From NCBI GenBank assembly GCA_964542165.1, contig CAZITQ010000003.1, forward strand, positions 12,451 through 76,450: 64,000 bases of DNA, written 5' to 3'. Source of the stretch: an uncultured Rickettsiales bacterium (GTDB taxonomy: Bacteria; Myxococcota_A; UBA796; UBA9615; CAYRNR01). Shown piece after piece: positions 14,818-57,124 of this stretch (position 1 is its first letter; the number at the start of each line of letters is the position of its first letter). A model generated the notes under the pieces. It was not told the origin of the DNA. It saw nothing but the letters and a program-made list of their open reading frames with translations, and did no database searches. The position numbers and the translations under genes were made by a program.

Positions 14818-15192
14818 TCAGAGCTTCTTCTGGAGGGTCTGGGCCTTGTGGTGCGCCTGTTGCCCGCCGTAGGCCCGCAGGGCCCGGTTGCACATGCGCA
14901 GGGAGTGGATGCGATCGTCGAGCTCCTCGAGGCGGCGGTGCGCCGTCTGACGGAAGAGCGCCGCTGCCTCTTTCCAGGCACGGAACGCCGCCTCCTCCGC
15001 GGGGGTCGGAGGGCCGTGCCTTCGCTCGGCTGCGGCTCGAATCGCGCGGTCGCTCAGGTGGAGCTCCGGGGCCATGCCCGCCAGGCTGTCGTCGTCCGCG
15101 ACGGCCACCGCCTGGGACAGGCGCTGGAGCTTGTGGGTCGCCGCCTTCAGCAGCTCTTGCAGGTCGCTGTCAGCTCGCGCGGGCAGCTCCAT
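14818..15192 (-). CDS. Hypothetical helical protein downstream of fliS (possible FliT-like chaperone, by position only)
   Basis: ATG 15192 is preceded by GGAGGACTCCT. All-helical, charged sequence. No motif recognised. The ORF track extends it to 15237. Confidence 0.4.
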   Translation of the reverse strand: MELPARADSDLQELLKAATHKLQRLSQAVAVADDDSLAGMAPELHLSDRAIRAAAERRHGPPTPAEEAAFRAWKEAAALFRQTAHRRLEELDDRIHSLRMCNRALRAYGGQQAHHKAQTLQKKL

Positions 15193-15577
15193 AGGAGTCC
15201 TCCTGGTAGATACGCACGGCCTCGTCCCAGGTGTCACGCAGCTCCACGAGCTTTTTGTGCAACACCTCGAGGTCGGCTTCCATGGGCCGTTGGTGGGCGT
15301 CGAGCATCACCCGCGACAGGTAGGTGTAGTGCCGGAACAGCTCCACGGCCACCGAACCGCCCGTCTCGATGCTCAGGCTCTCCTGGAGAGCGACCACGAT
15401 CCGGCGCGCCCGGAACAGCTCTTCCTTGCGCACCCGCGGATCGTCGCTCTCCATCGCCCGCTCCATCATGGAGACCGCTCCTTCGCACAGCTCCACCAGC
15501 AACTGCTGCGGACTGTGGGTCTCCAGTGTCGTGCGCTGATAACTCTGCAACTTCGATGCCATGGGGTTGGCGTACAT
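15170..15577 (-). CDS. fliS: Flagellar export chaperone FliS
   Basis: SPQQLLVELCEGAV, ..IVVALQESL..E.GG.VA.EL...Y.YL...L and LRDTW match the FliS pattern. Position after fliD. Confidence 0.85.
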   Translation of the reverse strand: MYANPMASKLQSYQRTTLETHSPQQLLVELCEGAVSMMERAMESDDPRVRKEELFRARRIVVALQESLSIETGGSVAVELFRHYTYLSRVMLDAHQRPMEADLEVLHKKLVELRDTWDEAVRIYQEDSYGAARAS

Positions 15578-55712: not shown

Positions 55713-57124
55713 GCGGCGCCCACGCTCACCTCCTGGCTCATGCCCAGCCGCTTCAACCGCTCCACCAGGGTGGTGCGATTCATCCGCAGCAGACTCGCGG
55801 CCCGGTTCTTGTTCCACGACACCCGGTCCAGCACCTGCTCGAGGATGGCGCGCTGGAATCGCTCGGTCTCGGCGTAGAAGTCCAGTCCGTCCTCGGGCAC
55901 GTTCAGGGCCAGATCGCCGGGGGTGCCCGCCCCCGTGTCCATGACCATCGGCGGAAGGTCGCAGGCGTCCAGCACCGGACCGTCCGCCAGGACCATCATC
56001 TGTTCGAGGGTGTGGAGCAGCTGCCGCACGTTGCCCGGCCACCGGAAGGCGCACAGGGCGTCCAGGCAGGCCTGGGTCATGCCCGCGATCTCCAGGGAGT
56101 ACCGCTCGTTGATGTCCGCGGCCCAGTAGCGGATGAGGGCCGTGATGTCCCCTCGGCGTTCGCAGAGGGGCGGTAGCTCGAGGGGCACGACGTGAAGACG
56201 GTAGTACAGGTCCTCGCGGAAATTGCCCTGCTCCACCTCGCTCCACAGGTCGCGGTTGGTGGCCGCGACGATCCGGACGTCCACGTGGCGGGTCTGGCTG
56301 GAGCCCACGGGCGTGACCTCCCCGTCCTGCAGGGTCCGCAGGAACACGGCCTGGATCTCCATCGGCAGCTCCCCGATCTCGTCGATCAGCAGCGTGCCGC
56401 GGTCTGCGTTCTCGAACACGCCCTTGCGACGGGCCACCGCGCCGGTGAACGCGCCCTTCTCGTGGCCGAAGAGCTGGCTCTCCACCAGCTCGCGGGGGAT
56501 GCTGCCCGCGTTGAGGGGCACGAAGGACTGGTCGGCGCGGCGGCTGGACTGATGGACCGCGCGGGCGACGAGCTCCTTGCCCGTCCCGGTCTCGCCGGTG
56601 ACGAGACAGCAGGCGTCGGTCTTCGACACCTTCTCGATTCGCCGGTACACCTCCTTCATCGCCTTGGACTCGCCGACCAGGCAGCCGAAGTGCAGCTCGA
56701 TGTCGTCGACACCGGCGGAGAAGTCCACCGCCAGCTCCTCGTGGTGTCCCGCCAGCTCGTCGCTGATGCTCTCCCGGACCAGGGGTCGGATGCGTCCCCG
56801 AAGCCAGGAGGGGAGCAGCCCGGTCAACTCCCCGCGAACCGCGGGGGTGCACAGCACCACCAGGCGCTCACCGGAACTCCGGGACATCCCCGAGAGGCTC
56901 GCGAGCAGGCGACGGTCCTCGCCTGCGTCACCGAACAACACGAAGATGGGCCCTTCGCCGTGGCCGTCCACGATCCTCTCGAGGTCCCTTGTGGTGGTGA
57001 CGTACTGAAGGGAGGCTTCGGGGGCGATCTGTTGCGCCCACTCGCCGACCTGCTGGCCCAGAACCGTCCTACCCGAGATAACGACGTCCATCTTCCCCGG
57101 TTCCCTTCGGGGTCCAGACGTCAC
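55709..57124 (-). CDS. Sigma-54-dependent transcriptional activator (FleQ/FlrA-like bEBP)
   Basis: AAA+ Walker A GETGTGKELVARAVH. GAFTGA loop. Fis-type HTH NRAASLLRMNRTTLVERLKRLG. N-terminal receiver-like domain lacks an obvious acidic pocket. The start may be the ATG at 57091. Confidence 0.9.
   Translation of the reverse strand: MTSGPRREPGKMDVVISGRTVLGQQVGEWAQQIAPEASLQYVTTTRDLERIVDGHGEGPIFVLFGDAGEDRRLLASLSGMSRSSGERLVVLCTPAVRGELTGLLPSWLRGRIRPLVRESISDELAGHHEELAVDFSAGVDDIELHFGCLVGESKAMKEVYRRIEKVSKTDACCLVTGETGTGKELVARAVHQSSRRADQSFVPLNAGSIPRELVESQLFGHEKGAFTGAVARRKGVFENADRGTLLIDEIGELPMEIQAVFLRTLQDGEVTPVGSSQTRHVDVRIVAATNRDLWSEVEQGNFREDLYYRLHVVPLELPPLCERRGDITALIRYWAADINERYSLEIAGMTQACLDALCAFRWPGNVRQLLHTLEQMMVLADGPVLDACDLPPMVMDTGAGTPGDLALNVPEDGLDFYAETERFQRAILEQVLDRVSWNKNRAASLLRMNRTTLVERLKRLGMSQEVSVGAA

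Follow-up and report, generated by a model that had tools for sequence, protein, structure and literature searches.

A flagellar supercluster is carried at positions 14818-57124 of a 64-kb stretch of metagenomic DNA (hereafter the window, i.e. all 64,000 nucleotides analysed). Every structural class of the diderm flagellum is represented in it, plus FliA, FlgM and a sigma-54-dependent activator. The cluster holds 46 open reading frames (ORFs), 45 of them on the minus strand, and 95.3% of its bases are coding. With good confidence, it can be read as a complete and intact gene set for a conventional external diderm flagellum, in a host that is most likely a member of the Myxococcota and under what would be a three-tier regulation. 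Judging from its genes, this flagellum would be expected to assemble and to support swimming. The window sequence is part of the 146-kb JGI metagenome contig Ga0115649_1000206 (3300009008), and assemblies of three further data sets contain it as well.

Genes were called by third-position GC bias (GC3), because raw ORF lists are useless at such a base composition (65-73% GC all along the window), and were annotated by NCBIfam and Pfam scans with hidden Markov models (HMMs). No frameshifts were seen in the 46 cluster ORFs. No tRNA genes were found in the window, and an Rfam scan of the whole window returned no match.

In the direction of transcription, the first part of the cluster comprises the sigma-54 activator, a TPR gene, flgBC, fliEFGHIJ, a ylxF/FlbB-like gene, a probable fliK, flgD, a TIGR02530 gene and flgE. 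The middle part consists of an HDOD gene, motAB, fliLMN, a long fliO-like gene, fliPQR, flhBA, an flhF-like gene and fliA, and the last part of flgFGAHI, an flgJ-type gene, flgM, a 127-aa ORF, flgKL, a flagellin gene, a glycosyltransferase gene (plus strand), a second flagellin gene, flaG, fliDS and a 124-aa ORF. A preliminary description, made from the letters alone, had proposed about 45 flagellar genes on one strand over about 42 kb of very GC-rich DNA, in a fla-operon-type order with the diderm genes flgFGAHIJ placed after it. The HMM scans agree with the number, the order and the high GC content, and the statement on strand holds for all ORFs except the glycosyltransferase gene. The genes which that description listed were all recovered, and its inventory was amended in four details: the HDOD gene lies between flgE and motA, the TPR gene lies between the activator gene and flgB, there is no flhG, and the product named FlhF is degenerate.

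Curated cut-offs were passed by FlhA, FliF, FliE, FlgB, FlgC, FliP, FliQ, FliN, FlgK, FlgL, FlgG, FlgF, FlgI, FliA and the TIGR02530 protein, and also by FliI (FliI/YscN family model), FlgA (C-terminal domain) and FlgE (FlgEFG subfamily model). Clear matches under the equivalog cut-offs were obtained for FlhB, FliR, FliG, FliM, FliH, FliJ, FliS, FliD, FlgD, FlgH, FlgM, MotA, MotB, FliL, FlaG and the two 272-aa flagellins. Weak matches supported by gene position were used to assign FliK (Flg_hook, 19 bits), FliO (20-22 bits), the YlxF/FlbB-like protein (MgtE_N, 27 bits) and the FlhF-like protein (31 bits). For the export gate, FlhA, FliP and FliQ scored over their cut-offs, and FlhB (339.7 against 349) and FliR (122 against 169) just under them with full-length matches. 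For the MS ring, C ring and ATPase complex, FliF, FliN and FliI pass, FliG comes close, and FliM, FliH and FliJ are divergent yet recognisable. The four-protein rod, the P ring and the L ring are covered by FlgB, C, F, G, FliE, FlgA, H, I and J; the hook, junction, cap, filament and stator are covered by FlgD, E, FliK (weak and positional), FlgK, L, FliD, flagellin, MotA and MotB.

The individual genes are given below in transcription order, on the minus strand unless stated otherwise, with scores in bits and cut-offs after a slash. At the head of the cluster, the activator (55709-57091) has an AAA+ sigma-54 interaction domain and HTH_8 (precomputed Pfam matches: Sigma54_activat, AAA_lid_14 and HTH_8). 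It scored 322-265 bits with NorR/NtrC/FlbD-type models, all under equivalog cut-offs, and its N-terminal ~135 aa (FleQ/FlrA-like position) matched no model. The start of the following gene overlaps the activator stop by 4 nt; this gene encodes a 793-aa TPR protein with a signal peptide (53331-55712; weak TPR matches, YbgF-like TPR 26 bits) and was found in all copies of the contig. The basal body and export genes are flgB (proximal rod, 52829-53209; TIGR01396, 62.7/59.05), flgC (rod, 52389-52823; TIGR01395, 162.7/102.1), fliE (52049-52378; TIGR00205, 66/30), fliF (MS ring, 50405-52000; TIGR00206, 177/129.75), fliG (rotor/C ring, 49372-50403; TIGR00207, 206.7/226.7, full length), fliH (48692-49375; FliH models, 68-54 bits, under cut-offs), fliI (export ATPase, 47334-48695; TIGR01026, 587.7/379.5) and fliJ (46894-47337; PF02050, 30.9/28.4; TIGR02473, 28 bits). 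The ylxF/FlbB-like gene (46346-46897), in its fla-operon position, encodes a signal peptide and an MgtE_N-type helical domain (PF03448, 26.9/25.9; collar FlbB, 22-26 bits, weak). The probable fliK (hook-length control, 44871-46349; PF02120, 19.2/29.8) was assigned mainly by position: its product is Ala/Gly/Pro-rich with a C-terminal Flg_hook-like segment, and its ATG at 46349 is preceded by AGGAGG. The hook genes are flgD (hook cap, 44099-44836; NF005176, 119 bits), the TIGR02530-family gene (43728-44102; 85.1/83.2) and flgE (hook, 42234-43508; NF004238, 334 bits; TIGR03506, 300/70).

The HDOD-domain gene (41250-42077; PF08668, 64/22.9) keeps its position between flgE and motA in L086, the locus of a relative with an 89% identical FlhA. 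The stator is encoded by motA (40136-40906, start GTG at 40906; NF005383, 252 bits; NF006527, 248 bits) and motB (OmpA-type peptidoglycan anchor, 39371-40132; NF006508, 145 bits). A longer motA ORF (start 41101) was rejected: it encloses a perfect sigma-54 promoter, and the L086 gene encodes 256 aa. The MotA protein matches the models of the sodium-type stators MotP/PomA best (252/248 bits, vs 83 for proton-type MotA1), scores from which alone the ion specificity is not readable. Next come fliL (38858-39358; NF006283, 103 bits) and a divergent fliM (37919-38854; FliMN_C, 34.6 bits; TIGR01397, 42/219.6 over 108-302). The FliM N-terminus (SLNREQVDRLLE) reads like the CheY-P-binding LSQxEIDxLL peptide; since this peptide is kept, a chemotaxis system would be expected elsewhere in the genome. 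The export gate genes are preceded by fliN (37621-37926; TIGR02480, 85.4/84.05) and a gene for a FliO-like protein of 440 aa (36297-37619; PF04347, 19.6 bits; TIGR03500, 21.9 bits). The FliO-like protein is several times the usual length, contains charged low-complexity regions rich in Glu/Lys/Ser/Arg and in Asp/Glu, and is only 47% identical to its L086 counterpart, compared with 79-91% for neighbouring genes. The gate itself is encoded by fliP (35548-36300; TIGR01103, 263.8/217.45), fliQ (35211-35540; TIGR01402, 92.4/88.9), fliR (34447-35214; TIGR01400, 122/168.6), flhB (33334-34440; TIGR00328, 339.7/349.25) and flhA (31223-33304; TIGR01398, 860/772).

After the flhF-like gene (30167-31219), discussed below, the cluster continues with fliA (sigma-28, 29310-30152; TIGR02479, 222/189.6), flgF (rod, 28561-29313; TIGR02490, 185.9/178.5), flgG (distal rod, 27766-28518; TIGR02488, 306/252.75), flgA (P-ring chaperone, 27000-27761; TIGR03170, 66.4/54.65), flgH (L ring lipoprotein, 26272-27003; NF001301, 100.8 bits), flgI (P ring, 25160-26257; NF003676, 337/300) and the flgJ-type gene (24423-25160), which combines a rod-binding domain (PF10135, 34.3 bits) with an M23 peptidase (PF01551, 117 bits) in place of the glucosaminidase of enteric FlgJ. 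This FlgJ variant occurs in some delta-proteobacterial flagellar systems. The anti-sigma-28 gene flgM (23921-24250; TIGR03824, 33.1/40.75) has an L086 orthologue with a precomputed PF04316 match. It is followed by a 127-aa ORF in the flgN position (23537-23920; no family match, with a 71% identical orthologue at the same place in L086) and by the junction genes flgK (22129-23523; TIGR02492, 300/170.75) and flgL (21251-22129; TIGR02550, 142.8/127.2).

The sole plus-strand gene of the cluster, a DUF3880 + Glyco_trans_1_2 glycosyltransferase gene (18332-20026; PF13524, 103 bits; PF12996, 30 bits), sits between two nearly identical genes for 272-aa flagellins: flagellin 2, of the short type (20145-20963; NF009444, 274.8 bits), and flagellin 1 (17424-18242; NF009444, 214 bits on a start-truncated version). 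Its position suggests that it is possibly a flagellin glycosylation enzyme. The cluster ends with flaG (16933-17241; NF005834, 38.6 bits, weak), fliD (filament cap, 15579-16982; NF005955, 163.5 bits), fliS (flagellin chaperone, 15170-15577; TIGR00208, 47.3/53.75) and a 124-aa helical ORF (14818-15192; no family match), assigned to the fliT position by place only.

For promoters, the whole window was scanned with TGGCAC-N5-TTGCW (sigma-54, one mismatch at most) and TAAAG-N16-CGATRA (sigma-28, with the expectation taken from 100 shuffles). Four sigma-54 sites were found against 1.0 expected, two of them placed before flgB and motA: a promoter-like site (AGGCACGTAGCTTGCA, 53251-53266, minus strand) lies 42 nt upstream of flgB, and a perfect match (TGGCACGTTCGTTGCT, 40945-40960, minus strand) about 40 nt upstream of the motA start codon. 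The motA site is likely to be functional, because L086 carries it equally far upstream of the gene but with another spacer (TGGCACGCGGGTTGCT, 41 nt before motA). The sigma-28 scan returned three matches against 0 expected, all on the coding strand and 44-120 nt upstream of flgM (24371-24397, TAAAGTCGCCTGGAGGGTGTCCGATGA, kept in L086 as TCAAGTCGTCAGGGAGGCGTCCGATGA), flagellin 2 (21023-21049) and flagellin 1 (18286-18312). For the sigma-54 half of a flagellar hierarchy, the cluster contains an enhancer-binding protein that has the sigma-54 interaction domain, and early genes preceded by GG-N10-GC promoters; for the sigma-28 half, it contains FliA and FlgM (the latter under its cut-off), and late genes preceded by sigma-28 promoters. 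Since the cluster carries the genes for the activator, FliA and FlgM, it is read most simply as a cascade from sigma-54 to sigma-28 with FlgM export as the checkpoint. The motif scans and the conservation in the relative strengthen the earlier proposal that the system is clearly regulated.

Such a cascade would work as follows. In the first tier, the sigma-54 enhancer-binding protein at the cluster head would switch on at least two sigma-54 promoters, the flgB promoter driving the basal body, export apparatus and hook genes, and the motA promoter driving the stator, switch, export gate, flhF-like and fliA genes and probably the downstream rod and ring genes. In the second tier, FlgM would restrain FliA until the hook-basal body can export FlgM, and the freed FliA would then act on the sigma-28 promoters of the two flagellin genes and of flgM, the last probably serving flgK and flgL as well. 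A third tier may consist of control of assembly or rotation by cyclic di-GMP (c-di-GMP). Four genes in or beside the cluster, all on the minus strand, are linked or possibly linked to this messenger: a GGDEF diguanylate cyclase gene adjoining the activator gene (57413-58498; PF00990, 151 bits), an HD-GYP-type phosphodiesterase gene (9814-11022, domain match), a gene for a PilZ-domain protein with an RRHFR motif, which adjoins the cluster as a candidate c-di-GMP effector (14050-14595; PF07238, 40.9/22.5), and the HDOD gene. The HD-GYP gene is preceded, at a distance of 54 nt, by a weaker sigma-28-like site (TCAAG..GACGATAA, 11102-11076). The link between c-di-GMP and this flagellum is suggested by these domains and their position.

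The proposed scheme resembles the FleQ/FlrA hierarchy known from Pseudomonas and Vibrio: at the top stands a sigma-54 activator in which no phospho-receiver is obvious, basal-body promoters are of the sigma-54 type, FliA and FlgM control the flagellins, and c-di-GMP enzymes are nearby. The activator may be called FleQ/FlrA-like by its position. In contrast to that hierarchy, the window shows no FlrBC/FleSR second tier and no FlhG, and its FlhF is degenerate.

The FlhF-like protein, a lineage-restricted homologue of FlhF, is the one unusual detail of the locus, and a lead. It is 350 aa long, its gene directly follows flhA, and it matches TIGR03499 (31.5 bits) at the N-terminus only, with no Pfam family match. 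When aligned to a local profile built from 21 canonical FlhF proteins of fetched loci, it fell into three colinear pieces corresponding to the B, N and G domains, so that both the domain order and the position after flhA are those of FlhF. The GTPase motifs are altered: GPTGVGKTT of G1 reads GHPFTGRST, without the GxxGxGK[ST] pattern, DTAG of G3 reads IDLP, and TKLD of G4 reads TGVD. When 1.84 billion representatives were searched exhaustively with HMMER, only six related clusters at 50% identity emerged, and the P-loop Lys-to-Arg change is invariant in all seven family members, which argues for a conserved variant as opposed to decay. Homologues were located in two relatives (L086, 12086-13138; L089, 13639-14718), and that of the Myxococcota-labelled metagenome-assembled genome (MAG) GCA_023150875.1 has the same Lys-to-Arg change and DTAG changed to DLPG. 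The FlhA-FliA spacing is 1.07 kb, compared with 1.6-3.9 kb in 53 of 60 other loci, 40 of which have a recognisable FlhG. A phmmer search of the Protein Data Bank with the FlhF-like protein gave no match, and a single-sequence AlphaFold model was unusable (pLDDT 47). A term search of a recent review of the FlhF-FlhG switch (PMC12826062) gave no mention of a degenerate FlhF or of the Myxococcota.

The host was placed by signature domains and by FlhA. The preliminary description had named a MYXO-CTERM-like tail, a protein with seven Cys/Asp-rich repeats and a eukaryote-like Ser/Thr kinase as Myxococcota features. The tail is on a MXAN_6640-family putative secreted metalloprotease (8055-9794, minus strand; NF045524, 131/140), and with the TIGR03901 HMM, whose cut-off is 20 bits, the full-length protein scored 25.8 and the tail alone 30.9. 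This is the one window protein with such a tail; a neighbouring protein matches the MXAN_2562 family weakly, and a homologue search with the MYXO-CTERM protein returned metagenomic relatives only. Just before the Cys-containing tail, the protein contains 13 consecutive Asp (about residues 520-535). The repeat protein (62183-63859, plus strand) is an Ig-like protein (ASH / choice-of-anchor D; NF012200, 76 bits) with 6-7 repeats; these are of the MopE type (PF11617, 178 bits), and six stretches score rather than the seven proposed. The kinase (3583-5784, plus strand; Pkinase, 150 bits) was likewise confirmed, with a transmembrane segment and a DsbA-like thioredoxin domain (Thioredoxin_4, 113 bits).

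A search of 5.8 billion proteins placed the window FlhA in a tight clade: one cluster at 89% identity, which includes MDP7112317.1, labelled '[Myxococcota bacterium]', then nine clusters at 74-78%, with the next matches only at 55%. In a neighbour-joining tree of 161 sequences (no bootstrap, indicative only), the sister of this clade is MCK6526790.1, also labelled '[Myxococcota bacterium]'; both lie inside a clade of 51 tips, mostly metagenomic proteins, with Thermodesulfobacteriota and Bdellovibrionota further out. As far as a marker-free 64-kb window permits, the MYXO-CTERM tail, the MXAN families and the FlhA labels support the attribution. The host is accordingly a likely member of the Myxococcota as the phylum is broadly defined today, and no cultured species is close to it.

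Several points weigh against this overall reading. Neither the window nor its 10-kb flanks contain ribosomal or other phylogenetic marker genes, so the phylum rests on submitters' labels and signature domains. In a scan of species-representative genomes with the universal FlhA motif DAMPGKQM, the FlhA matches listed were 42-50% identical, from many phyla, with none above 50%. The window peptidase T (PepT; 60353-61591, minus strand), encoded beside the cluster, is 72% identical to a homologue in CP070706.1, a closed 4.1-Mb genome labelled Acidobacteriota. FliM, FliO, FliK, FliJ, FliH, FliS and FlgM score under curated cut-offs. No che gene is present in the window, as the preliminary description had stated, and no Che domain was found in any ORF by the NCBIfam and Pfam scans; rpoN is not in the 64-kb window either. 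No FlhG-like sequence was found in the window, its flanks or the loci of two relatives. Finally, the predicted promoters are motif matches rather than mapped transcription starts.

Some of these points could be explained if the host belonged to another phylum in which flagella are routine (e.g. Acidobacteriota, Desulfobacterota or Bdellovibrionota), its Myxococcota signatures being shared or mislabelled; this is the most serious alternative, and still an unlikely one. The labels of the closest relatives are mixed (Myxococcota for the 89% FlhA cluster and for the sister in the tree, Acidobacteriota for PepT), and all NCBI MAG labels of this kind are supplied by the submitters themselves. The best FlhA proteins among the species-representative matches listed come from Thermodesulfobacteriota, Bdellovibrionales and 'Deltaproteobacteria' MAGs (45-50%), and three 'Deltaproteobacteria' MAGs (loci L005, L011 and L021) share the backbone gene order. 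MopE repeats and Ser/Thr kinases also occur outside the Myxococcota. Set against this, the MYXO-CTERM tail exceeds its curated cut-off, two MXAN-named families match flank proteins, the closest named FlhA and the neighbour-joining sister are both labelled Myxococcota, and no Acidobacteriota name occurs in the 120 best FlhA matches or in 80 loci. For the Acidobacteriota in particular, CP070706.1 (L092, 914643-935881) has different pepT neighbours, no synteny and no close FlhA, and PepT is phylogenetically promiscuous. PepT was rejected as a taxonomic marker: its family-level clade is without names, the Acidobacteriota match is non-syntenic, and a Cryomorphaceae protein falls in a 58% cluster. 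The 72% match itself implies a transfer of pepT or else an error in one of the phylum labels.

The preliminary description had regarded a flagellum in this background as notable, since model myxobacteria glide and are considered non-flagellated; the latter holds for the classical fruiting and gliding myxobacteria but not for the phylum at large, and the former is contradicted by precedents. Persicimonas caeni YN101T (Bradymonadales) shows 'unambiguous flagella' by electron microscopy, moves by flagella and by gliding, and has a complete flagellar gene set including flhA, flhB, fliR, flhF, fliN, motAB, flgH, fliI and flgD (PMC7188933). According to the accessible part of a later report, Bradymonabacteria are now the class Bradymonadia of the Myxococcota (PMC11509652), so that P. 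caeni and the window host would share a phylum as now circumscribed. Flagellar assembly was also listed by Murphy and colleagues among the traits of Zodletone Myxococcota MAGs (o__JAFGXQ01 / f__JAFGIB01; bioRxiv 10.1101/2021.07.06.451402). Among seamount MAGs (23 Myxococcota and 12 Bdellovibrionota), flagellum/pilus genes, flagellins included, were among the most highly expressed, the accessible text not stating which phylum carried the flagellins (PMC11937823). An NCBI-labelled Myxococcota species representative (locus L019) was found here to carry flhB-flhA-fliA. Flagella are patchy but established in the Myxococcota, and only the classical Myxococcia and Polyangia models are without them. 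P. caeni belongs to another lineage than the window host: no Persicimonas protein is present in the 120 best FlhA matches (all at least 48% identical), and its genome has 63.8% GC, compared with about 69% in the window.

Conservation in relatives bears on how the cluster was acquired. In GCA_964436045.1, 25 genes from flgE to flgL are in identical order over 22 kb, with protein identities of 47-91%. Cluster and flanking PepT/M24/GGDEF genes stay linked in relatives with FlhA 74-89% identical, and a 70,034-bp contig of a relative carries both PepT and FlhA. GC content and codon (GC3) bias do not differ between cluster and flanks, and no integrase or mobility genes, tRNA or repeat boundary were seen bordering the cluster. 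More distantly, GCA_023150875.1 carries motAB-fliLMN-fliPQR-flhBA; its FlhA is 54% identical, and its cluster is broken after flhA, unlike the single block of the window. The uniform GC, the lack of mobility genes, the kept order, the linked PepT and the shared FlhF substitutions point to long residence in the lineage and are at odds with recent import.

The gene order could nevertheless suggest a foreign origin. The fla/che operon of Bacillus subtilis and the flgB operon of Borrelia burgdorferi have the order flgBC-fliEFGHIJ-ylxF-fliK-flgD-flgE...fliLMNOPQR-flhBAF...sigD/fliA, and in spirochaetes motAB precedes fliL. The window has this Firmicute/spirochaete-type order, including motAB before fliL, and the TIGR02530 gene lies between flgD and flgE as it does in a Paenibacillus locus (L024). 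It differs from Bacillus and Borrelia in lacking the embedded che and flhG (ylxH) genes, in an HDOD gene where flbD sits, in control by sigma-54, and in the diderm flgFGAHIJ, flgMN-KL and filament genes that follow on the same strand. The three 'Deltaproteobacteria' MAG loci have flgD-flgE...fliL-N-P-Q-R-flhB-flhA-(flhF/G)-fliA-flgF-flgG-flgA-flgH-flgI; since they share this backbone, a Firmicute-type order with flgFGAHI appended is not special. Unlike the window, they have canonical FlhF and FlhG, an FlhA-FliA spacing of 2.5-2.7 kb and no motAB between flgE and fliL, and their FlhA is 44-46% identical.

An ancestrally non-flagellated Myxococcota lineage might have received all 42 kb of the cluster in a single horizontal gene transfer from a Firmicute-, spirochaete- or Desulfobacterota-like donor. 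The compact, single-strand supercluster, the fla-operon order of its first half known from Bacillus and Borrelia (with a partial check in Paenibacillus), and the lack of flagella in classical myxobacteria would fit such an event, which is nonetheless improbable: cluster GC and GC3 match the flanks, the integrase, tRNA and repeat boundary are missing, and the PepT/M24/GGDEF linkage is kept in relatives. Moreover, the nearest outgroup FlhA is that of a Myxococcota-labelled MAG with the same unusual FlhF substitutions. Because FlhA identity to named genomes, Firmicute or other, lies at only 42-50% among the matches listed, any transfer would be ancient.

A relic or repurposed secretion system without a role in motility, like the needleless type III secretion system of Myxococcus, would agree with the high divergence of FliM, FliO, FliK and the FlhF-like protein and with the non-flagellar type III systems with FliO homologues of Myxococcota (PMC12248157), and is highly improbable given that filament, hook, junction, cap, P/L-ring and stator genes are all there and intact, that the strong GC3 bias implies selection on coding in the cluster genes, that dedicated sigma-28 promoters are predicted before the flagellins, and that orthologues and gene order are kept in relatives.

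Starting from the Myxococcota reading, a bolder and tentative proposal can be made, which we regard as possible though doubtful: an ancestral flagellum, lost in gliding and fruiting myxobacteria, may have been kept by vertical descent in the lineage of the window and in one or more others labelled Myxococcota, and in these lineages the FlhF-FlhG switch for flagellar number and placement may have been replaced, leaving a conserved FlhF pseudo-GTPase.

The remaining genes at the edges of the window are of other kinds. Two tandem paralogues lie at 2289-3515 and 3583-5784 (both plus strand): the first encodes a secreted DsbA-like thioredoxin protein, and the second is the kinase described above, a kinase-DsbA fusion whose extracytoplasmic C-terminal half is a near-copy of the first protein. 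Together with the upstream flank (L093, 1-10000), positions 75-7336 (plus strand) form an exopolysaccharide/capsule export cluster (sugar transferase, Wza-like, Wzc-like, HEAT protein, Wzi and WecG). The downstream flank (L083, 1-9800) encodes four ketoacyl synthases and a FabA/ApeI-like dehydratase, similar to aryl-polyene-type lipid biosynthesis.

Since flagella are already documented in the Myxococcota, the locus is a clean new example rather than a surprise. A flagellated cultured member and flagellar genes in MAGs were published earlier, and nothing is overturned by it. The locus lends support to the idea that flagellar loss characterises the classical myxobacteria rather than the whole phylum, an idea that bears on the origin of gliding motors related to MotAB. 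Its value lies in providing a tidy, fully contiguous reference locus for an uncultured Myxococcota-labelled group, with annotated genes and promoter motifs, together with a set of close relatives, GCA_964436045.1 and ten further FlhA clusters. In addition, a degenerate FlhF with no FlhG nearby is an oddity of flagellar placement control that is concrete and open to testing. If the proposal of vertical retention and a replaced FlhF-FlhG switch were true, the lineage would offer a living reference point for the shift of the Myxococcota from swimming to gliding, and a natural example of an FlhF that works without control by GTP hydrolysis.

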